A stretch of 64,000 nt of DNA from NCBI GenBank assembly GCA_030765535.1, contig JAVCCH010000025.1, positions 7,871 through 71,870 on the forward strand, given 5' to 3'. Source of the DNA: Candidatus Tenebribacter davisii (lineage in GTDB: Bacteria; Cloacimonadota; Cloacimonadia; Cloacimonadales; TCS61). The position numbers and the translations under genes were made by a program. Positions 3,977 to 63,022 of the stretch are shown in pieces. Each line of letters starts with the position of its first letter. Position 1 is the stretch's first letter. Under the pieces are notes generated by a model. That model saw nothing but the letters and a program-made list of their open reading frames with translations. It made no database searches and was not told the DNA's origin.

Positions 3977-4080
3977 AATAAACCACTTTTTAAAATAATT
4001 TCTTACTTATACATTAATATTATTGACACATTGTCTTCCCCTTCCCGAATTTGCAAAAAAAAGTATATTGGAAGAATAAT

Positions 4081-6072
4081 ATGGCAAAAGATTTTAATGC
4101 AGAAAAAAATTATCAGACATCCAAGCAAAAAGTAGGTTATACTGCTCGAAATATAACGCCGCCAAAAACCTATAAAGAGCTCGGATTTATGAGCGGATTG
4201 GAAGTTCATCAGCAACTAAAAACACAAGAAAAATTATTTTGCAGATGCCCGGCAGGATTGTTTAATAAATTTGACGATTATGATGCAGAATTGATCCGTC
4301 ATATGCGCCCCACTCTTTCTGAAATGGGAACCTATGATGGAACTGCTTTAATGGAATTCCGAACTAGAAAAAATATCATTTATCGTATTAATAATGATAC
4401 AACTTGTACTTATGACGTTGATGATACACCACCATTTCCAATTAATAGAGAAGCTCTTGATTATGCTATACAGATAGCTTTAATATTAAAACTTAATATC
4501 GTTGGAGAATTGCATATAACCAGGAAACAATACCTTGATGGAAGCATTCCAACCGGATTTCAGCGTACTGCAATAATTGGGATTGAAGGAGTAATTCCTC
4601 TTAAGAAAAAAAAAATCAGAATTATCCAGCTTAGTATAGAAGAAGACTCCTGTCGTGAAGTATCCGACATTGGTCATGAGAGAACTTACCAGACAGATAG
4701 ACTGGGTATTCCATTAATTGAAACCGTAACTTATCCCGATATGATCACACCTGATGAAGTTCTGGAAGCTGCACAGTACATTCGCTTCTTAAATAGAAGT
4801 TCTGGGAAAGTTAGAGTTGGAATTGGTGCTGGAAGAGAAGATGTAAATGTAAGCATAAATGGTGGAACCCGAATCGAGATAAAAGGTGTTTCACATAATA
4901 AATGGATACCGGAATTAACCCATAATGAAGCTTTCCGTCAGAAAGCACTTCTAATGATCAAAGATATATTAAATAAACGTATTCCAGATATAAATAAATG
5001 GAATCCAACTTTTAAAAATGTTGATTTTGATGTATCGGACATTGGTTATGAACCAATAAAAAATGCGATGAATAATGGGTGGAAGCTTGTTGCTTGTAAT
5101 CTCCCGGATTTTAAAGGAATCTTATCACATTTTCTTCAGCCGGGAAAAACTTTCGCTGACGAAATTGAGAATAGACTAAAAGTAATTGCATGTCTCGAGA
5201 AACCAAATTGTGTACATTCAGAAGATATGAATCATGTGTTCAGTGAATCACTTTTAAAACAGCGTTCGAAATTACTTAAATGCAAAGCAGATGATGCTCA
5301 AATAGTTTTTTGGGCTTTAGATGAAGATGTGCAAACTGCTTGTGAAACTATTGAAGAACGGTGTAGAATGGCATTTGACGGTGTTCCAAATGAAACTCGT
5401 AAAGCATTTAAAGATGGAACCACAATATTTGAACGTGTTCTTCCTGGAGCTGATAGAATGTATCCTGACACAGATTCTGCTCCAATACCAATTGAAGATA
5501 AATACATTAAAGATTTGGGAAAAGATCTTCCTGTAGACCTTAATATCAGATTTAAACAATTGAAAAAATGGCAGGTTCCTGAAGATTGTTTTCACTATAT
5601 ACTCAGAAATAATCTCGCACCTGAAATAGAACGGATCAATAAAGACCTCAAGATCGATCCAAAATATGTTGCTACAACATTTGCACATACCCTAAAACAT
5701 ATTGAAGGGCAATTTATTCCAGATGTTCCCTTTCCATATTCAAAAATATATGATATGTTCAAATTCATTCTAGAGAAAAAGCTTTCTTTTGATATTGTAA
5801 AATCTATTTTACCAATAATTTATCTCTATTCTCAAATGGATTTTGAATCAGTTCTAAATTCTTTGGAATTTGAAAAATATAAAAAAGAAACGATCTTAAA
5901 AAATGTAGGCAGCCTTAAAACAATGTTCCCGAAGATCATTAATTCAAAGAATCCACTAGCTCCCGAGAAATGGATCATGGGAAATTTGCGTCCGATCGCT
6001 CTGGGAAACATACCTTTAAGGGAACTGAATAAATTTGTGCGGGAATCATTATCTGATGGAGGTGTCAAATGA
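4081..6072 (+). CDS. gatE: Glu-tRNA(Gln) amidotransferase subunit E (archaeal type)
   Basis: 'GLEVHQQLKT..KLFCRCP', 'YLDGSIPTGFQRT', 'IEEDSCR', 'DRLGIPLIE', an AspRS-like insertion ('LPDFKGILSHFLQPGKTFADE'), 'RVLPGADRMYPDTD' and a helical tail; likely ATG at 4081. Confidence 0.92.
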   Translation: MAKDFNAEKNYQTSKQKVGYTARNITPPKTYKELGFMSGLEVHQQLKTQEKLFCRCPAGLFNKFDDYDAELIRHMRPTLSEMGTYDGTALMEFRTRKNIIYRINNDTTCTYDVDDTPPFPINREALDYAIQIALILKLNIVGELHITRKQYLDGSIPTGFQRTAIIGIEGVIPLKKKKIRIIQLSIEEDSCREVSDIGHERTYQTDRLGIPLIETVTYPDMITPDEVLEAAQYIRFLNRSSGKVRVGIGAGREDVNVSINGGTRIEIKGVSHNKWIPELTHNEAFRQKALLMIKDILNKRIPDINKWNPTFKNVDFDVSDIGYEPIKNAMNNGWKLVACNLPDFKGILSHFLQPGKTFADEIENRLKVIACLEKPNCVHSEDMNHVFSESLLKQRSKLLKCKADDAQIVFWALDEDVQTACETIEERCRMAFDGVPNETRKAFKDGTTIFERVLPGADRMYPDTDSAPIPIEDKYIKDLGKDLPVDLNIRFKQLKKWQVPEDCFHYILRNNLAPEIERINKDLKIDPKYVATTFAHTLKHIEGQFIPDVPFPYSKIYDMFKFILEKKLSFDIVKSILPIIYLYSQMDFESVLNSLEFEKYKKETILKNVGSLKTMFPKIINSKNPLAPEKWIMGNLRPIALGNIPLRELNKFVRESLSDGGVK

Positions 6073-7451
6073 TAGATATCTTTAAAGGTTATAAAGGTGA
6101 TTCTGTTGAAATCCTGAAGAAGTACCATATTCGTGTTTGGGGAGATGTTGAAATAAAAACAACTCGAGGAGATTTCAGTGGAATAATTCTACCTCGTTCT
6201 GAAAATGATGATGATAAACATATTGTTATTAAGCTTGTTACAGGTTATAATATTGGGATAGACACAGGAACAATAATCGACATGAAAGAGATCGGTTATA
6301 AAGAAGCACATTATAAAATACCTGAAAAAGAGTTCCCCTATACAGAAGGATTACCCAAAGTTAAACTATTTGGAACAGGCGGTACAATTGCTTCCAGACT
6401 GGATTACAGAACTGGGGCAGTAATCCCTGCTTTCTCTCCCGGAGAATTATACGGAGCAGTTCCGGAGCTTGCTGATATTTGTAATTTGGAGACTGAAAAA
6501 CTTTTTGCTGTTTTTAGTGAAAACATGGGTCCAGAGCAATATAAAGCTTTAGCCATAGCTATTGGAAAAGAGATAGAGAAAGGGATCGATGGTATTATTA
6601 TTGGGCATGGAACAGATACTCTCCATCACACAGCAGCAGCTCTTTCCTTCATGATCCAGAATTCTCCTGTACCGATCATTCTGGTTGGTTCACAACGTTC
6701 ATCAGACCGTCCTTCTTCTGATGCTGCTTTAAATCTTATGCATGCTGCAACAGCTGCAGCTAGATCTGATATAGCAGAAGTAATGGTTTGCATGTTCGGT
6801 CCAACTTCTGATGAATATGGACTTTTACACCAGGGAACTCGTGTAAGGAAAATGCATTCTTCATATCGTTCTACTTTCCGTACAATTGGAGACGTACCAA
6901 TTGCAACTGTAACGCGAGAAAAAATAACTCCGATCAAAAAGAATTATAATCGCAGAAGAAATGATAAAAAGGTAACTATTCTTCCATACTTTGATGAAAA
7001 AGTAGCTTTACTTTATTATTATCCAAACATGCACCCGGATATAATTTATTCACTTATTGAAAATAAATATAAGGGAATTATCATAGCTGGAACAGGACTT
7101 GGCCATGTAAATAAACCTTTATATCCGGCTATTAGGAAATGCACTAAATTAGGTATACCCATTTTTATGACCGTACAAACTCTATGGGGTTATGTTCATA
7201 TGTTTGTTTATGATACAGGTCGAGACCTTATGAATTATGGAATAATTCCTACCGAAAACATGCTGCCTGAAGTAGCTTTTATCAAACTCAGCTGGGCTTT
7301 AGGGCAAACCGACGATCTTGATAAAGTTCGTGATCTTATGCTTACGCCTATTTCAAATGATATAACTAAAAGAGAACCTTATAATGGTTATCTGATCTAT
7401 CAAGGCGGAATCCCTGAAGTTGAAGAATTTATCAAAAAAGTACACAAATAG
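6069..7451 (+). CDS. gatD: Glu-tRNA(Gln) amidotransferase subunit D (asparaginase-like glutaminase)
   Basis: GatD-specific N-terminal domain ('GIILPR...HIVIKLVTGYNIGI'), 'GTGGTIAS', 'HGTDT', 'GSQRSSDRPSSD' and 'RKMHSS'; ATGA overlap with gatE. Confidence 0.92.
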   Translation: MIDIFKGYKGDSVEILKKYHIRVWGDVEIKTTRGDFSGIILPRSENDDDKHIVIKLVTGYNIGIDTGTIIDMKEIGYKEAHYKIPEKEFPYTEGLPKVKLFGTGGTIASRLDYRTGAVIPAFSPGELYGAVPELADICNLETEKLFAVFSENMGPEQYKALAIAIGKEIEKGIDGIIIGHGTDTLHHTAAALSFMIQNSPVPIILVGSQRSSDRPSSDAALNLMHAATAAARSDIAEVMVCMFGPTSDEYGLLHQGTRVRKMHSSYRSTFRTIGDVPIATVTREKITPIKKNYNRRRNDKKVTILPYFDEKVALLYYYPNMHPDIIYSLIENKYKGIIIAGTGLGHVNKPLYPAIRKCTKLGIPIFMTVQTLWGYVHMFVYDTGRDLMNYGIIPTENMLPEVAFIKLSWALGQTDDLDKVRDLMLTPISNDITKREPYNGYLIYQGGIPEVEEFIKKVHK

Positions 7452-10996: not shown

Positions 10997-12014
10997 CTGA
11001 AACCTCTTGGAATAAACTAATAATTTCATTTAACTCATCAGTTCTATATATAAATAATTTTTGTAATCCTTTGAACAGGACCAGGTTAAGCTTATCATCA
11101 GCTTTCTTATCCTGTTTCAGAATAGATTCTCCATTTCTCATGATCTCAGGAAGATATTTAGAATTGAATGATACTGGAAGTGCAAATTTTTCTAATCGTT
11201 TTATTATCATTTCAAGAATCTCTTGATTAATAAAACCCCTTTTTAAACTAAATATCGCTGCGGCTCGAATACCTACAGCAACTGCAGTTCCGTGTGATAT
11301 TTCATAATTTGATATTGATTCTAAAACGTGGCCAAAAGTATGTCCCAAATTTAATAATCTTCTCGAACCTTTATCGTACAGATCATGCTCACATAGTTCA
11401 AGTTTAGTTCTTATCGCCTCCTTAATGACTCCCTCCATATTATAATCTTCTGTAAGAAGGTTTTGTAAATTTGATTGTTGTAAAAAAGACATTTTAATAA
11501 TTTCAGTAATTCCATCTTTATATTCTTTGGTGGGAAGAGTCTTAAGAAAATCTGAACTAATGATCACTTCTTCTGCCGGATAAAAACTTCCAATTCCATT
11601 TTTAATATGTTCGAAATTGAATCCAGTCTTCCCACCAATCGCAGCATCAACCATACCTAGCAACGTTGTAGGTATCAAAACTAATCGGCACCCACGTTTA
11701 TAAGTGGAAGCAGCATACGCTGCTATGTCAGTTGTAACTCCTCCTCCAATAACACAAATTATACTGTTCCTATGTACTTTATTTGTATGAAGAAATTTAT
11801 AAATTCTTTTAAGATAATCGATATTTTTAGTATCTTCATTAGCGTTGTAAATGAAAATCCTAGTTTGATCCTTGATCATCTGAAATAATTTCTCATAAAG
11901 TTTTTTTACTTTAGAATCAATAATAAAGACATGATTTTTCCCAGTTTCATTCACATTTATTAAGTTAGAAATATACTTAATATTCATATTATTATTTATA
12001 AATTTTAATTTCAT
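10989..12014 (-). CDS. aroB: 3-dehydroquinate synthase (sugar-phosphate cyclase family)
   Basis: 'IGGGVTTDIA', 'PTTLLGMVDAAIGGKTG', 'GITEIIK', 'LNLGHTFGHVLE' and 'HGTAVAVG' (metal ligands E/H/H present). Confidence 0.85.
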   Translation of the reverse strand: MKLKFINNNMNIKYISNLINVNETGKNHVFIIDSKVKKLYEKLFQMIKDQTRIFIYNANEDTKNIDYLKRIYKFLHTNKVHRNSIICVIGGGVTTDIAAYAASTYKRGCRLVLIPTTLLGMVDAAIGGKTGFNFEHIKNGIGSFYPAEEVIISSDFLKTLPTKEYKDGITEIIKMSFLQQSNLQNLLTEDYNMEGVIKEAIRTKLELCEHDLYDKGSRRLLNLGHTFGHVLESISNYEISHGTAVAVGIRAAAIFSLKRGFINQEILEMIIKRLEKFALPVSFNSKYLPEIMRNGESILKQDKKADDKLNLVLFKGLQKLFIYRTDELNEIISLFQEVSDD

Positions 12015-46590: not shown

Positions 46591-49500
46591 TTACTTAAAA
46601 GGTACAACTACAAAAACTGTAGTTCCCTCATTTTCTTTACTATTTACCCAGATACGACCATTATGCAGATTGGCAATTAGTTTTGCGGTAGAAAGCCCAA
46701 GTCCTAACCCGCTGGAATGGAACTCTGTATCACCCGAACTATGAGAAATGATATCAGTAAGTTCGTAAAATTTTTGGAAGATCTTTTCCTGTTCATTTTC
46801 AGGAATTCCAATTCCATTATCGTTAACATATATTATTAAACTATCCTTACCGTTTATCTCTTCCTGCTGGAAAGCGGAATGCCTTGCACCAATAGTAATC
46901 GTTCCAAAATCTCTGGTAAATCGAATAGCATTATGCACAATATTGAACATCATCAGATAAAATGCATTCCAGTTAATATTCACTGGCTGCAGGGAAGATT
47001 CCACATTTAATTTAAAGATCATATTTCTGTTTTTAGATATATTTTCACCTTCCTCTTTTAATTCACTGAGAAGATCAATAATATTCACTTTCGCTTTCTG
47101 AAGTTTATTATACATCTGGTATTTATTAAAATTAATGATATCATTAATAGTTGTTTCCAGTTTATCTGTACTGGAAGATAGGGTATTAATGATCTCTTTC
47201 TCCTTTTTCTGGAGCTTTATCTTTTTTAACATTTTTACATAACCGTGTATTGCAACCAGCGGTGTTTTTAATTCATGTGAAACAATATTGATGAAATCTT
47301 TCTTTAGATCATCTAGTGAGCTTATCTCTTTATTGGTTTTCGTTAACAGCTCATATTGTTGGGCATTTTTTATAGCAGTAGAAATTTGAGTTAGTATTAA
47401 TTTCAAAAAATTGGAATTGATCTGCATCTCATCTTTTTCAGCATTCAGGTTATCAAAATAAAGAAAACCATAAATCTTGCTGTCAACAATGAGTGGTGCA
47501 CAATATATAGATAGAACCGCAGAATCAATATCATTTGTATTACTGAATAGGTTTTCCTCTTTAGCATTTGAAACATAAATAGGTTGTTTAATCCTCTGCA
47601 CTTCACTTAAGATACTCTTACTTACATACACATAATCTCTTACAATTTGTTTGGAATCATCCATTGCAACTTTGTACGTATAATTTTCATATTGATCTTT
47701 TTTGATGAAAAATCCACGTGTACTATTTGTGAAATCTAATGTAAATGTCACGATCTCCTGTTCTAATTTATCCAACTGAAGAATTGCAAAAAACTTACGC
47801 GTTGTATCAATTAATTTTGACATTAATTCCATATCCTTATTCAGAGTGACAAACTCATTTATACGGATTAATATGGAAGTAAGATGCAGTTTTAATATCT
47901 TAACGATTTGGATCTCTTCATCCTGAAATGTAACTTCACCTTGATCAGCCAAAATTAAGCATCCAACTTCAGCAGTTTTGATCTTTAACGGAACGAATAA
48001 AACATGTGATCTATCTATCTTTCTGGATATTATCTCATTTTTTATTAGTGATTCCTTCATATAACTATCAATCTTACTAGAAAACAAATATTCGCTCTTT
48101 ATATTAAGTTTCAAGAATGGATCTTTATGATTATCCATTTCATCTTTCAGTATTATTGCATAGTAATAAGGTGCTAATAATTTGGTGATCGTCTTATCTA
48201 TGAAAAATTTCATCCGAGGTGTATTTTTTAATTTTAGTATATCGTATAATTCTTCCTGCCATTTTTCTGATGATTCAGTAAAACGAGGTTCTATTTTTAC
48301 TGTTTTAAATCCTGAATAATTTTTCAGGTAATATTTAGTTTTTCTAAAATACAATTCTTTATCATGCTTAGGCAGATTTTTTATATTTTCTTGAACTGAT
48401 TGTTTATATTTATCAAACAGCAAGGTAGCTTTTCTTTTTAAATTCAAATAAGAATATATCTGAACAATTAATCCATATATTTCTGTTTCAAGCAAAAATA
48501 GCTCATTTTTTTGAACATAACTAATTAAATTTAGTAGATTACGCAATATTACTCTTAAATTTAAATTCCCATCTAACAACTGAATTCTTACTTTTTTAAT
48601 TTCCAGAACTGTTTCCCAGTACTTAAAATTATTTTTTTCACAAAGTTCTTCCGCTCTTTCACATGCCGATATAGCTTTTTGTATATTACCCAATCCAGCA
48701 TAGCATTCAGAGAGATGAATATAATTTATTGTTTGAGCATAATCACTACTATTTTGTTTGGAATATGTAAATGCCTTATCAATTATTTTGAGTCCACCCG
48801 AAAAATCTGTTTTTATTATTTTAAGGAATCCAAGCATTTGGAAATAAAATTCATGTTCATGATTTTCAAAGAATACATCTTCGTTTTTTTTCAACATTTG
48901 TTCTATTAATTCATAATCCCCTATTTCATAAAGATAATAGAAAAATGTTTTTGTTAATGGTGTAACCTTATACATTTCACCACGAATCAGATTCGGAACA
49001 TGCTCTTTGATGAATTTGTAATAGTAATAAAAGTTTTTTTTCTTACTTTTTGATATTGCCAGATTATTTATAATTGAGTTGTAAAATGGCTTTGTCTCTA
49101 ATTTCTTAGAATAAGTATATGCCTCCTTCAGGAAGTTCTCCGCTATTTTAAAATTCCCCAGCTTTATATGTGCTTCCCCCTGATTTAGAAGAACCAAGAC
49201 CCCATAACGTTTTGCATTAATTTGTTCAGAAATATTTTTGGCTTTCCTAAAATAAATAAATGCTTTGTTCGTATTACCTTTTGTTAATGCAACATCTCCG
49301 ATATTATTATAAACAGCTACAAGTTGACGTTTATAGCTGATTCGTTCCCATATTTTTTTGGCAATTTCAAAATTTTTATCAGCTTCATCTAAAACTTTTT
49401 TATGTCTGTAAAGAACACCCAGGCTATTATGGAGTCTTCCTAATTTAATAAAATAATTAGGATTATTCTGAGTTTTGACATCCTGTAAATAATCCTCCAT

Positions 49501-52029
49501 AATTGCTATACCTTCATTTAAACTTCCACTCAGACCGTAATAAAGACCCTTATTAACTATATAGCAAATTTTCTTATTCTCTGGTAGTGTATAAGATTCC
49601 AATTCAGCAATATATTTACCCATTTCTTCAATTTTATTCAGTAATAGCATGGTCCGACACAAATTTATGAGTATTTCAATTCGTAGTTTACCGGTAATTA
49701 CCGTTTTTAATGCTTTCTTAAATCTATTTTCTGCCAGTGTCAATTTTTCTATCGTTAAATAGAATAGACCCATTATAATATGCTTTTCAGGGATATTGGG
49801 CATTTTTAATATATGTGATTTCAGCTCATCAGTTATTTGTTTTTCAGTTGCCCATTCGGATTTTTCTATTAAGAGCTGAAGATCGGAGATCAGGTTACAT
49901 TCTTTGATATCAACTTCAGGTGAGAAATCAAGAATAACTACTTTTACCATCTGTTCAAAAGAGATCTCATGCTGTCCTCTTCGAGTAAATAGTTCAACAG
50001 AAAGCAGCAGATACTTGCGAACTGCTTCAAAGTCATTAATAAATTTTGCATGCTCTATAATACCGTCTAGAACAGAGAATAGAGTAATTTGTTTATCAAC
50101 GAAATATTTTAATATTTTATTAGAGATGACCTTCTTTGTTCTATCAGGTAACTCTTGAGAAAAATGATCTTTTGCTTCTCTAAAAGTGAAATTGAAATAT
50201 TCATCAACTTTTTTAAGAAGCTCATTGTTTACACAATCTGATATGAAAAAGAAGAGTGTTTTATCATCAATATTCAATATTGTTTGGATTAAAGTACTTG
50301 ATAAAGGAGTTTCAATACACGCTATTTTTTTTAAATACTGATAACTTGATTTTGAAAGATGTTCAATGCGAAGATATACAGCATCCTGTAATTCTTTTGG
50401 CAGCTCATAATTATCCAGATCATAATCAAAATTGAATTTATTTGATTCTAAGATCAATCTTTTATTAGTTAGATCAATAAGTATCTGCTCAATAAACATT
50501 GGATTACCATTGGAACGCAACCATACTTTTTTAACAAAGTCAGCCGGTGGTATTTTCATTAATAATTTAGACATGTATATTTCAGTTTGATCGTATGTGA
50601 GCGCATCTATCGTCATTTGAGCTGGATGCATCAATCCTACTAATTTACGCGGATCATTAATACTAAGAATGATAAGGATCGGTCGCCTGGTTACCTCTTT
50701 TGATATATAATTTATAAATCGGAACACAACTTTGCTTAAGTGTTCTGCTTGCCTGATAATAAAGATTAGCGGCTTTTCTTCCGAAAGGTGATAAATAAAA
50801 TTTGATGCTGCTTTAAAATCCAGGTCAAGATCATTGCCTTTACTTATAAGTTCTTCTACAGAATTTTCTGAATCAAATAAATATTTATTCAAGGAAGGAG
50901 ATATTTTAGATAGATCTGATGCGATCTTTTTATTATTTTTTACAGCGTGATAAAATTCTTTTATTAAGGCAAAGAAAGGATCCTTGTCTGACTCACTGCA
51001 TGAATAGTCAAAAATATAATATTTATCAGTTAATAAATGATACCGAAATAGTGTTAATACATTGCTTTTTCCTAAACCCTTACCAGCAGAGAGAGAAATA
51101 ATTTTACCATTATCCTTACATACTATAGGTAGATAATCCAGCAATCTATGGGAATAATCTTCACGTACAATATAATCACTAAATTGGATATTGTTCACAA
51201 TTGATCTTTTTCTGGAAAAAGGATATTTTTTGGGTTGTATCTGGTTAATCTGGTCAATAATACTTTCTGCATCTTGAAACCTGTCATTAGGATCCTTTTC
51301 CAACAATTTCAAAATAATTTTTTCCAGATCTTTTGGAATATCAGCATTTAATTCTGTCGGGAATTTAGGAAATAAATTGAATTCATCCCCAGCAAGAATT
51401 GATGAAAGTTGTTCTATTGTATATGGCAATGTTCCAGTTGTGATCTTATATAACATTACTCCAAGTGAATAAAAATCACTTTGTGTAACAGCTTTATTTT
51501 CGGTAAATACTTCAGGGGCAATATAAGGCAGTGCATTCCCAATCCGCTGATCATTTCTTTCAATATCAATCTTCGTAAAACCATAATCCATTAATTTAAG
51601 AACCGGCTGATTTTTTCTGATCTTATAAACAACATTGTTGGGTTTCAAATCTTTGTGAATAACATTTTGACTATGAAGTGCACTTAAAGCATAACAAATT
51701 TGTACAATAATATCATAAAAAAAACCCTCATTAGTTTTTTTATATCGGAAAGAAGAAAGTGTTTTACCCTCGTAATATTCACATAAGTAATATATATGAT
51801 TTTCAAAATTGCCAAAATCATTAACCTGTATGAGATTTGGATGATGTAATTTGGTTATGTGATGCATGTTCTCAGCCGATAGTTTTTCATATAAGGTATC
51901 TGCATCAAGCGTTTGAAACAATTTAAGCACATATCTTTTTTGAGTTCTCAGATCAATTACTTTATATACTGTAGCCCAAACACCAGAACCCAATTTTTTT
52001 TCAACTTTGTATCGTGAGTCAATAATCAT
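46591..52029 (-). CDS. Hybrid Ser/Thr kinase - AAA/STAND ATPase - TPR - GAF - GAF - histidine kinase (1812 aa)
   Basis: Kinase motifs GSGVWATV, VLK, HKDLKPNN, DYG, YIAPE, DFYSLG; P-loop GKGLGKS; TPRs; two GAF-like segments; H-box 'VSHELKTPL'; HATPase 'NAIRF..DNGIGI..GLGLGL'. Confidence 0.88.
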   Translation of the reverse strand: MIIDSRYKVEKKLGSGVWATVYKVIDLRTQKRYVLKLFQTLDADTLYEKLSAENMHHITKLHHPNLIQVNDFGNFENHIYYLCEYYEGKTLSSFRYKKTNEGFFYDIIVQICYALSALHSQNVIHKDLKPNNVVYKIRKNQPVLKLMDYGFTKIDIERNDQRIGNALPYIAPEVFTENKAVTQSDFYSLGVMLYKITTGTLPYTIEQLSSILAGDEFNLFPKFPTELNADIPKDLEKIILKLLEKDPNDRFQDAESIIDQINQIQPKKYPFSRKRSIVNNIQFSDYIVREDYSHRLLDYLPIVCKDNGKIISLSAGKGLGKSNVLTLFRYHLLTDKYYIFDYSCSESDKDPFFALIKEFYHAVKNNKKIASDLSKISPSLNKYLFDSENSVEELISKGNDLDLDFKAASNFIYHLSEEKPLIFIIRQAEHLSKVVFRFINYISKEVTRRPILIILSINDPRKLVGLMHPAQMTIDALTYDQTEIYMSKLLMKIPPADFVKKVWLRSNGNPMFIEQILIDLTNKRLILESNKFNFDYDLDNYELPKELQDAVYLRIEHLSKSSYQYLKKIACIETPLSSTLIQTILNIDDKTLFFFISDCVNNELLKKVDEYFNFTFREAKDHFSQELPDRTKKVISNKILKYFVDKQITLFSVLDGIIEHAKFINDFEAVRKYLLLSVELFTRRGQHEISFEQMVKVVILDFSPEVDIKECNLISDLQLLIEKSEWATEKQITDELKSHILKMPNIPEKHIIMGLFYLTIEKLTLAENRFKKALKTVITGKLRIEILINLCRTMLLLNKIEEMGKYIAELESYTLPENKKICYIVNKGLYYGLSGSLNEGIAIMEDYLQDVKTQNNPNYFIKLGRLHNSLGVLYRHKKVLDEADKNFEIAKKIWERISYKRQLVAVYNNIGDVALTKGNTNKAFIYFRKAKNISEQINAKRYGVLVLLNQGEAHIKLGNFKIAENFLKEAYTYSKKLETKPFYNSIINNLAISKSKKKNFYYYYKFIKEHVPNLIRGEMYKVTPLTKTFFYYLYEIGDYELIEQMLKKNEDVFFENHEHEFYFQMLGFLKIIKTDFSGGLKIIDKAFTYSKQNSSDYAQTINYIHLSECYAGLGNIQKAISACERAEELCEKNNFKYWETVLEIKKVRIQLLDGNLNLRVILRNLLNLISYVQKNELFLLETEIYGLIVQIYSYLNLKRKATLLFDKYKQSVQENIKNLPKHDKELYFRKTKYYLKNYSGFKTVKIEPRFTESSEKWQEELYDILKLKNTPRMKFFIDKTITKLLAPYYYAIILKDEMDNHKDPFLKLNIKSEYLFSSKIDSYMKESLIKNEIISRKIDRSHVLFVPLKIKTAEVGCLILADQGEVTFQDEEIQIVKILKLHLTSILIRINEFVTLNKDMELMSKLIDTTRKFFAILQLDKLEQEIVTFTLDFTNSTRGFFIKKDQYENYTYKVAMDDSKQIVRDYVYVSKSILSEVQRIKQPIYVSNAKEENLFSNTNDIDSAVLSIYCAPLIVDSKIYGFLYFDNLNAEKDEMQINSNFLKLILTQISTAIKNAQQYELLTKTNKEISSLDDLKKDFINIVSHELKTPLVAIHGYVKMLKKIKLQKKEKEIINTLSSSTDKLETTINDIINFNKYQMYNKLQKAKVNIIDLLSELKEEGENISKNRNMIFKLNVESSLQPVNINWNAFYLMMFNIVHNAIRFTRDFGTITIGARHSAFQQEEINGKDSLIIYVNDNGIGIPENEQEKIFQKFYELTDIISHSSGDTEFHSSGLGLGLSTAKLIANLHNGRIWVNSKENEGTTVFVVVPFK

Positions 52030-61552: not shown

Positions 61553-63022
61553 TCAATTAGATTTAATTTCAGGAAGATCTGTTTTACGTCTTCCTCCAAG
61601 CCTATTCGGTCCTCTTCTATCATGATTTCTAAACCGTGCTTGATGCACACTTAAAACATTACCAAAATATTCTTTATTATCAAGTGCAGAGATAGCTTTC
61701 CAAGCTTCTTTTTTCGGCATATCAATAAATGCATATGCTTTCAATTCATCATTAATCTTATCTGTGTGGATATTGATAGTTTTTACATCTCCATAATCTG
61801 AAAATAAAGCTTTTAATGATTTTTTTTCAACATCTTTAGGCATATTGCCAACAAAAATTTTCATTGCTATCTCTTCAGAATAATAATTTACAATAATTCC
61901 ACCGTTCCCGCCAATATTACCTATACCAAGCATTAGTATCTCTTTCGCAGGTAATTTTACCACATATTTTGTCAACTCTTCTCCGGTAACCCAACCACAG
62001 TCAGTGATCTTTTTCTTAGCTAATTTATTAGTCATTGCATAAGAATAGATCGTATTAGTCTGTTTACCGATCAAATAGAGGTGATCATAATGAACTTCTT
62101 TAAGCATGCGAATAAGCTGTTTAGAACGGAAGATCCTGTCATCTCTTGTATTCAGCACAATTGCAACAGCATGAGTACGGGGATAAAGCTCTTTTACAGA
62201 GTTGATAACAAATTCTGTAGATTCCGGATCGTTAGCAGCAAAAGCATGAACAAAATGCAATTCTGTATCTTTGCTCTTATTCAAATAGATCTCCATTGCT
62301 CCAATATCTGGTTGTGCTGTATACATACCCTCCAAAGCTGTTTTTTTATCAATCCCAAAATGTTCACAAACCTTTAATGATAGAGCAACATTATCCTTAT
62401 GCTCAATATGAGAAAATCCCTGCATATCTTCCTTAGATATTCCTGAATCATCAGATTGGATAATCTCGCAATGCATTTTTTTAGCTTCTTTTTTAATAAG
62501 AGGAAAAACTTTTTTCTCAGCCGTAAATAGTATTCCGTGTCTGGGAATTGTATTACAGAGAGATAAAGTTACATTTTTAAGCCCTGGTCCCATAACATCC
62601 AGGTGATCTAATCGGGAATTTGTGATAATACCAATATTAGATTGTACTATCTCATGTTCTGTAACCCATTGATATTCTGGGGTAACAGCCATACACTCAA
62701 GAACAAGAATATCAATTTTTCTTTTAGCTGCAAATTTTATTATCTTGATCTGTTCTTTGATGTTTGCACCATGATGTCTGACAATTGGAGTTTCACTTCC
62801 ATTCTCGAAAATTAAAGCCGGAGCTGAACCTGTAGTTTTTGCAATTATTCTCTTCCCACCGGCGCGAAGTCCGGCAGCAATTAAACGAGTAACACTAGAT
62901 TTACCTCTAGTTCCGTTTATATGGATGATCATGGGAATTTTTTTTCTACTGATCTTACATTTTTGGAATTCATAGATACCATAAGAGATCAGAAGTAAGA
63001 GTCCAAGTATTAAACCAAGCAT
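61553..63022 (-). CDS. pgsB: Poly-gamma-glutamate synthase B (CapB) read in frame into an RRM RNA-binding domain
   Basis: 'HINGTRGKSSVTRLI', 'GTTGS'-like 'KTTGS', 'LECMAV', 'ITNSRLDHLDVMG', 'FAANDPES' and 'GIGNIGG'; then from 61864 an RRM with RNP2 'IFVGNM' and RNP1 'KAYAFIDM'. Confidence 0.88.
   Translation of the reverse strand: MLGLILGLLLLISYGIYEFQKCKISRKKIPMIIHINGTRGKSSVTRLIAAGLRAGGKRIIAKTTGSAPALIFENGSETPIVRHHGANIKEQIKIIKFAAKRKIDILVLECMAVTPEYQWVTEHEIVQSNIGIITNSRLDHLDVMGPGLKNVTLSLCNTIPRHGILFTAEKKVFPLIKKEAKKMHCEIIQSDDSGISKEDMQGFSHIEHKDNVALSLKVCEHFGIDKKTALEGMYTAQPDIGAMEIYLNKSKDTELHFVHAFAANDPESTEFVINSVKELYPRTHAVAIVLNTRDDRIFRSKQLIRMLKEVHYDHLYLIGKQTNTIYSYAMTNKLAKKKITDCGWVTGEELTKYVVKLPAKEILMLGIGNIGGNGGIIVNYYSEEIAMKIFVGNMPKDVEKKSLKALFSDYGDVKTINIHTDKINDELKAYAFIDMPKKEAWKAISALDNKEYFGNVLSVHQARFRNHDRRGPNRLGGRRKTDLPEIKSN

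Follow-up and report, generated by a model that had tools for sequence, protein, structure and literature searches.

The gatE-gatD gene pair of Candidatus Tenebribacter davisii, a member of a bacterial branch of the GatDE amidotransferases

The gene pair and its archaeal counterparts

GatDE has been termed an 'archaeal signature protein' present 'exclusively in archaea' (PMC2330236, PMC2811023), and its structure has been solved for M. thermautotrophicus (PDB 2D6F, with tRNAGln) and P. abyssi (PDB 1ZQ1). Bacterial GatCAB shares the overall reaction scheme, and its GatB subunit is a paralogue of GatE with the same cradle domain, but the glutaminase is the GatA amidase together with GatC, and GatB has no insertion domain and a Lys-rich tail motif. 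The subject of this study is a gatE-gatD pair at positions 4,081 to 7,451 of a stretch of 64,000 nucleotides (the window) on contig JAVCCH010000025.1 of the bacterium Candidatus Tenebribacter davisii (Cloacimonadota; assembly GCA_030765535.1). Based on sequence comparison, we tentatively propose that the pair encodes a working GatDE of a bacterial branch, which would be accessory to the cell and convert Glu-tRNAGln to Gln-tRNAGln as a second route. An earlier reading made from the letters alone (the sequence-only reading) had described an archaeal-type enzyme in a bacterium. The following features were located.

4081..6072, forward strand: gatE, 663 amino acids from ATG; tRNA-dependent kinase/amidotransferase subunit, assigned by profile and PDB alignments
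6069..7451, forward strand: gatD, 460 amino acids; amide-donor hydrolase subunit, assigned by profile and PDB alignments
6069..6072, forward strand: ATGA overlap of the gatD ATG (6069-6071) and the gatE TGA (6070-6072), the junction reading GGAGGTGTCAAATGATAG
6058..6062, forward strand: GGAGG, Shine-Dalgarno-like, within the gatE 3' end and 6 nucleotides 5' of the gatD ATG

An alternative start of gatE is the TTG at 4051; the ATG at 4081 was retained because homologues measure 663 amino acids. The ATGA overlap indicates translational coupling of the two genes and, with both open reading frames (ORFs), the junction and the GGAGG in place, the complete coupled pair of the sequence-only reading was recovered. 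Adjacency of gatE and gatD is retained in at least 24 of the homologous loci compared. In a red-deer rumen Bacteroidales metagenome-assembled genome (MAG), a single ORF of 1100 amino acids (L024:6001-9303) contains GatB_N, GatD_N, Asparaginase and Asparaginase_C, and is either a natural fusion or the product of a lost stop codon. Among rumen Bacteroidia MAGs, three have an extra gene between gatE and gatD that breaks the coupling (L016, L017 and L021) and two have a gene of 498-507 amino acids adjoining the pair (L029 and L030). These extra junction genes encode 355-507 amino acids, and the two N-termini that were read (L016 and L029) are signal-peptide-like.

The ratio of nonsynonymous to synonymous substitution rates (dN/dS) was 0.03-0.06 for gatE as well as gatD in comparison with the orthologues of two other Cloacimonadota loci (L008 and L009), and both genes are under strong purifying selection. 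A search of sequencing runs gave no match to the gatED sequence in RNA runs.

In NCBIfam profile searches GatE passed two GatE equivalogs, with 470.5 bits for NF003107 (cut-off 456) and 395.9 bits for TIGR00134 (cut-off 319.55), while every score with the GatB models stayed far under cut-off. The Pfam domain GatB_N (PF02934) was matched with 165 bits, its profile of 277 positions being stretched across residues 38-476; about 160 residues are therefore inserted, corresponding to the GatE-specific insertion that is absent from GatB. This segment aligns with 2d6f_C, the GatE of M. thermautotrophicus, in agreement with an insertion, which the sequence-only reading had called AspRS-like. Against the PDB sequences, residues 31-655 of GatE align with residues 3-617 of 2d6f_C (294 bits), and the domain order is cradle domain, insertion, helical domain and a diverged YqeY-like tail.

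In the M. thermautotrophicus enzyme His15, Glu157 and Glu184 are the Mg ligands, and mutating them kills the activity (PMC2330236). Conservation of their counterparts H43, E187 and E214 extends over 138 GatE sequences, and all three are included in the 64 columns that the alignment shows to be conserved between the bacterial and archaeal groups. The tail of GatE (WIMGNLRPIALGN, residues 631-643) aligns to residue 617 of 2d6f_C with the A-x-G kept (IALGN against RADGK) and the first Gly replaced. In GatE a Gly/Ala motif takes the place that the Lys-rich one has in GatB (PMC2811023).

GatD scored 505.3 bits with the equivalog NF003217 (cut-off 310) and 500 bits with a second GatD model (cut-off 324). 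GatD_N (PF18195), Asparaginase (PF00710) and Asparaginase_C (PF17763) were all matched, and the type I asparaginase motifs are found as TGGTIAS (residues 103-109), HGTDT (180-184) and VRKMH (259-263), in agreement with the N-terminal domain and the intact Thr/Asp/Lys glutaminase site that had been read from the sequence. Residues 8-436 align with residues 3-428 of 2d6f_A at 383 bits, while stand-alone asparaginases reach at most 142 bits. With the equivalog cut-offs passed by both subunits, a misreading of GatB and a stand-alone asparaginase, which the sequence-only reading had named as fatal to its case, does not apply.

The pair is similar to archaeal GatDE in having two subunits with the same order of domains, adjacent genes, the same Mg ligands and Thr/Thr-Asp/Lys site and end-to-end alignments for both proteins. 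GatE is, however, only about 31-35% identical to the archaeal enzymes, and the cradle differs systematically from classical archaeal GatE at T88, T110, Y111, D115, Y151, I156, T205 and D463. The cradle signature RKQYLDGSIPTGFQRT together with RMYPDTD is common to the bacterial GatE and a Heimdallarchaeota enzyme. Heimdallarchaeota-type GatE (the P0160/P0279 cluster) is among the closest archaeal-side relatives, with only the P0161 cluster nearer to the bacterial clade, but is 40% identical and has an archaeal host. The residues that decide between Asp and Glu proved uninterpretable: Y151 and R235, sites at which the Fibrobacterota-Chlorobiota-Bacteroidota (FCB) clade departs from archaeal GatE, match GatB, yet Y151 is also present in the Heimdallarchaeota enzyme. 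Across the wider bacterial GatE radiation only Y151 of these two agrees with GatB.

Bacterial residence and distribution

The genome is a MAG of 218 contigs and 3.0 Mb with a G+C content of 34%, a completeness of 95% and an estimated contamination of 1.8%. Such an assembly could include an archaeal or chimeric contig through mis-binning, or genes that are decaying after a recent transfer, but we consider an artefact of this kind extremely improbable. The window, which lies on a contig of 91 kb, has a G+C content of 33%, close to that of the genome. The gene order chalcone-isomerase-like gene, DUF212, gatE, gatD and ABC exporter is kept wholly or partly in five other Cloacimonadota loci (L008-L011 and L032), of which the flanks are bacterial. 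Near-identical sequence was found in marine and salt-lake metagenomes of several studies, and the DUF212/gatE, gatE/gatD and gatD/ABC junctions are bridged without joints by independent contigs, drawn from four runs that belong to different studies. GatE is most similar to the proteins of Cloacimonadota MAGs (85-98% identity; 85-86% for Ca. Tenebribacter), whereas its identity to the nearest archaeal sequences with a name is just 31% (Methanosalsum) and 40% (a cluster holding a Heimdallarchaeota sequence). The low dN/dS also argues against decay. A chimeric or archaeal contig, the other outcome that would have undone the sequence-only reading, is ruled out by synteny, G+C content and the junction-spanning contigs as far as sequence data show. 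The bacterial flanks were confirmed as well: elsewhere in the window a CHU_C domain of type IX secretion, a TonB-dependent receptor, PPDK, two-component kinases and sigma-type regulators were found, so that the rest of the window is typical of Gram-negative bacteria.

Many MAGs of Bacteroidales and three of 'Aminicenantes' contain relatives of GatE with 54-65% identity. Among 1.8 billion representative proteins GatE forms a series, from the Cloacimonadota/Bacteroidales clade over about 30 clusters of 40-54% identity to classical archaeal sequences of 29-41%. The intermediate clusters with a known name or context come from bacteria, among them Deltaproteobacteria MAGs, CSSED10-310, and contigs with sigma-70, DnaG, HPr kinase or type IX secretion genes. 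The Cloacimonadota, Bacteroidales and 'Aminicenantes' sequences form one clade with 100% support in the Shimodaira-Hasegawa-like approximate likelihood ratio test, represented in the tree by 20 rows (nine Cloacimonadota, nine Bacteroidales-type, one 'Aminicenantes' and P0122). When six GatB sequences, on a long branch, serve as the outgroup, the bacterial radiation is nested inside archaeal GatE, and its successive sisters are the P0161 cluster and then the cluster holding Heimdallarchaeota. This topology fits the earlier suggestion of either an archaea-to-bacteria transfer or a deep bacterial lineage, and favours a presumed old transfer from archaea to bacteria with subsequent spread among bacteria.

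An even draw of 201 Bacteroidales species was searched for the relevant genes. A GatE-type gene was detected in 92 species (about 46%) and a GatB-type gene in 11, with both in six (G080, G082, G111, G130, G136 and G214). GlnRS was detectable in all of these six but G111, and the Bacteroidales genomes with GatB, GatE and GlnRS have three potential amide-tRNA systems each. GlnRS was found in 193 of the 201 species, including 86 of the 92 with GatE. On a GlnRS tree of 150 of these genomes, which served in place of a species tree, GatE must have been gained or lost at least 17-31 times. Repeated gains and losses beside a nearly universal GlnRS mean that GatDE is accessory in the Bacteroidales clade.

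The idea that GatDE is unusual in bacteria does not hold at these frequencies, and the Prokaryotic Genome Annotation Pipeline (PGAP) already names these proteins GatE. Neither full-text searches with bacterial terms nor the GatDE papers from 2014 onwards yielded a paper on bacterial GatDE. Among the members of a large bacterial branch the gatED pair studied here is an ordinary one, and it is the branch that deserves attention. The enzyme has long resided in a bacterial phylum, where it is under selection, and nearly half of the Bacteroidales species sampled have a member of its clade, GlnRS being present as well in almost every case. Either Gln-tRNAGln is reached by two routes in bacteria, or GatDE now does another job, for which asparagine synthesis is the leading candidate. 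In a survey of bacterial routes to Glx-tRNA the pathway status was deduced from gatCAB only (PMC3927822); GatDE should be considered when amino-acid auxotrophy and translation fidelity are predicted from the genomes of gut, rumen and digester bacteria.

Synthetases, tRNAs and the substrate of GatDE

By analogy with the solved archaeal enzyme, the asparaginase-fold GatD would free ammonia from Gln or Asn, and an internal tunnel would carry it to GatE. On a mischarged aminoacyl-tRNA, GatE would use ATP and Mg to phosphorylate the side-chain carboxylate, which the ammonia would then amidate. The enzyme would run parallel to GlnRS and AsnRS and be dispensable, and its target tRNA would have to be marked in the bacterial way (by U1-A72 and a short D-loop) instead of by the archaeal A1-U72 pair.

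Profile searches of the genome identified GlnRS (TIGR00440, 722 bits), AsnRS, a bacterial-type AspRS and LysRS. The single GluRS is bacterial, and its residue equivalent to T. thermophilus Arg358 is Arg, which is the discriminating type; changing this residue to Gln makes the T. thermophilus enzyme non-discriminating (PMC2978374), although the marker is not universal (PMC3927822). The genes gltX and glnS are 1.7 kb apart on contig C106. In the same genome gatE is the sole GatB_N match, with no second such gene, and no GatA was found, the only amidase scoring 208 bits against a cut-off of 481. The sequence-only reading had expected a host that lacks GlnRS and has a non-discriminating GluRS, and neither expectation was borne out. 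In the survey of glnS, gatCAB and GluRS type that it had called for, glnS is present, gatCAB is absent and GluRS has the discriminating-type Arg. GatDE would be a genuine but additional route alongside GlnRS and AsnRS, or one with a shifted role, and is not 'the' Gln-tRNAGln route as in archaea.

A lack of glutamine synthetase was considered after negative motif searches and then rejected, since phmmer and tblastn searches with an E. coli GlnA query found a split type I enzyme. Its gene, glnA, is the only copy and is divided between the ends of contigs C215 and C58; it was missed by the motif searches because of this split, which calls for caution with other absences in this MAG.

The tRNAs that bear on the substrate have the following features.

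tRNAGln(UUG), contig C73: 1:72 pair U1-A72; D-loop AGCGGUA (7 nucleotides); A73
tRNAAsn, contig C183: 1:72 pair U1-A72; D-loop AGCGGUA (7 nucleotides)
tRNAGlu: 1:72 pair G1-C72; longer D-loop
tRNAAsp: 1:72 pair G1-C72; longer D-loop

Two differing tRNAAsn(GUU) genes are present among the contigs of the MAG, one on C14 (c[11550-11623], no encoded CCA, D-loop of 8 nucleotides) and one on C183 (c[11897-11971], with CCA and the tRNAGln-like D-loop). A tRNA-SeC gene is located on C6. Archaeal GatDE separates tRNAGln from tRNAAsn by the 1:72 pair and positions 19/20 of the D-loop (PMC2330236), and bacterial GatCAB reads U1-A72 and the D-loop (PMC2811023), marks that the tRNAGln and tRNAAsn of this genome carry. 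The C183 tRNAAsn and tRNAGln are identical in the 1:72 pair and the D-loop, and are therefore indistinguishable to GatDE by those marks.

To our knowledge, amidation of Glu-tRNAGln is the only activity known for the GatDE family. A glutamine substrate is also suggested by the tail, where GatE probably retains the A-x-G motif in place of GatB's Lys-rich motif, and by tRNAGln itself, of which the U1-A72 pair and D-loop of 7 nucleotides would set it apart from tRNAGlu. GatE is also found in six of the eight genomes of the Bacteroidales sample without detectable GlnRS.

Several observations weigh against a second route to Gln-tRNAGln. As GlnRS and glutamine synthetase are both present, a Glu-tRNAGln amidotransferase is without obvious benefit, and because of the Arg in GluRS its substrate may not form at all. 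The tRNAGln lacks the A1-U72 pair read by archaeal GatDE, contrary to the suitable tRNAGln expected in the sequence-only reading, and the tail is not matched by the Pfam model GatB_Yqey (PF02637), unlike in the archaeal enzymes. The enrichment of GatE in the genomes without detectable GlnRS is not significant (Fisher p=0.15) and may be caused by MAG incompleteness. A passage on dual bacterial Gln routes in PMC4206432 appears, from its context, to say that none is known.

GatDE could instead act on Asp-tRNAAsn, alone or in addition to Glu-tRNAGln: a relaxed AspRS would charge Asp on tRNAAsn, and GatDE would turn it into Asn-tRNAAsn as the only Asn route of the cell. We hold this to be rather unlikely, but it is a serious rival, not demonstrated. 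AsnA, AsnB (the single Asn_synthase match is MnmA) and an AsnRS-like synthetase paralogue were not found in this genome, absences that are probable at 95% completeness, while glutamine synthetase is available for the amide donor. Of 29 other GatE-containing genomes, 24 lack both AsnA and AsnB. Acceptance of the C183 tRNAAsn is permitted by its shared marks, as a prediction, and the discriminating look of GluRS also speaks for this reading. Asn auxotrophy is nevertheless plausible for peptide fermenters, and 22 of 109 GatE-negative Bacteroidales genomes lack both synthetases too.

A precedent exists in the tRNA-dependent Asn synthesis of Deinococcus, Thermus and Bdellovibrio, for which PMC4206432 describes GlnRS, AsnRS and one amidotransferase without AsnA or AsnB, and a U1-A72 tRNAAsn. 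The amidotransferase is GatCAB there, in contrast to GatDE here, and the AspRS markers of the present genome are mixed. At two AspRS positions, which we presume from work on P. aeruginosa to mark specificity, the motif REQGN has Gly as in mycobacterial chains deposited as Asp/Asn ligases (E. coli has Lys), but RRRDLGG has Leu as in E. coli, where those chains have His. The GatB residues matched by bacterial GatE at Y151 and R235 would agree with an asparagine role. We know of no characterised GatDE that uses Asp-tRNAAsn. The insertion domain of GatE, which is kept here, has been modelled to clash with AspRS (PMC2330236).

In the Bacteroidales sample AsnA is present in 12 of 92 genomes with GatE against 57 of 109 without (Fisher p=3e-9, a raw value that ignores kinship). 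Under phylogenetic control the association fades to a non-significant trend (17 independent pairs on the GlnRS tree, 6.1 opposite, 2.0 same and 8.9 unchanged; median p 0.29), and AsnA or AsnB taken together show no trend in such pairs. Complementarity of GatE and AsnA was downgraded for this reason. In addition, 53 of the 92 GatE-containing genomes have AsnA or a PF00733 protein, the latter matches including paralogues from polysaccharide loci, and GatCAB does not exclude GatE, which accompanies six of the 11 GatB genes. If an Asp-tRNAAsn or dual activity were true, GatDE would have switched substrate, Asn would be made on tRNA in FCB bacteria that have GlnRS and AsnRS, and many 'Asn-auxotrophic' Cloacimonadota and rumen Bacteroidales would be prototrophs.

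Neighbouring genes and a possible change of function

GatDE might also have been repurposed, its kinase and ammonia chemistry being directed to another carboxylate, linked to tRNA or not, or to a role conditional on nitrogen status. This is improbable in our view, and more so than the asparagine role. The distribution of GatE is patchy and the genes are easily lost, both direct synthetases are present and the tail is diverged beyond its Pfam model, all of which are compatible with a new function. The block of cradle residues that departs from classical archaeal GatE could be read in the same way, but the Heimdallarchaeota enzyme has the same signature, so it is no bacterial invention. None of the domains that handle tRNA is missing, and they align with the archaeal structure that has tRNA bound.

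A link with nitrogen genes was observed at three loci. In a Deltaproteobacteria MAG (L045:4584-9326) glnA (Gln-synt_N/C) stops 5 nucleotides before gatE in a glnA-gatE-gatD operon, and on two bacterial contigs (L048 and L049) an NtrBC-like pair of a histidine kinase and an NtrC-like sigma-54 activator adjoins gatED. Sigma-54 regulators are common, however, and their adjacency is weak evidence. No candidate for an alternative substrate came from any of the neighbourhoods examined. The neighbours in Cloacimonadota (DUF212, chalcone-isomerase-like, ABC exporter) and Bacteroidales (methylmalonyl-CoA decarboxylase, MBOAT, OTC) gave no functional hints, and no aminoacyl-tRNA synthetase is linked to gatED in the loci compared. 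An accessory GatDE acting on Glu-tRNAGln remains our tentative preference.

Two further genes of the window, both on the reverse strand, encode proteins of uncommon composition. In an ORF of 489 amino acids (61553-63022) a Mur ligase middle domain is joined to a C-terminal RNA-recognition motif (RRM_1), an unusual pairing. A protein of 1812 amino acids (46591-52029) contains a Ser/Thr protein kinase, TPR repeats, GAF, HisKA and HATPase_c, and by its predicted domains joins a kinase of eukaryote-like type to a histidine kinase.

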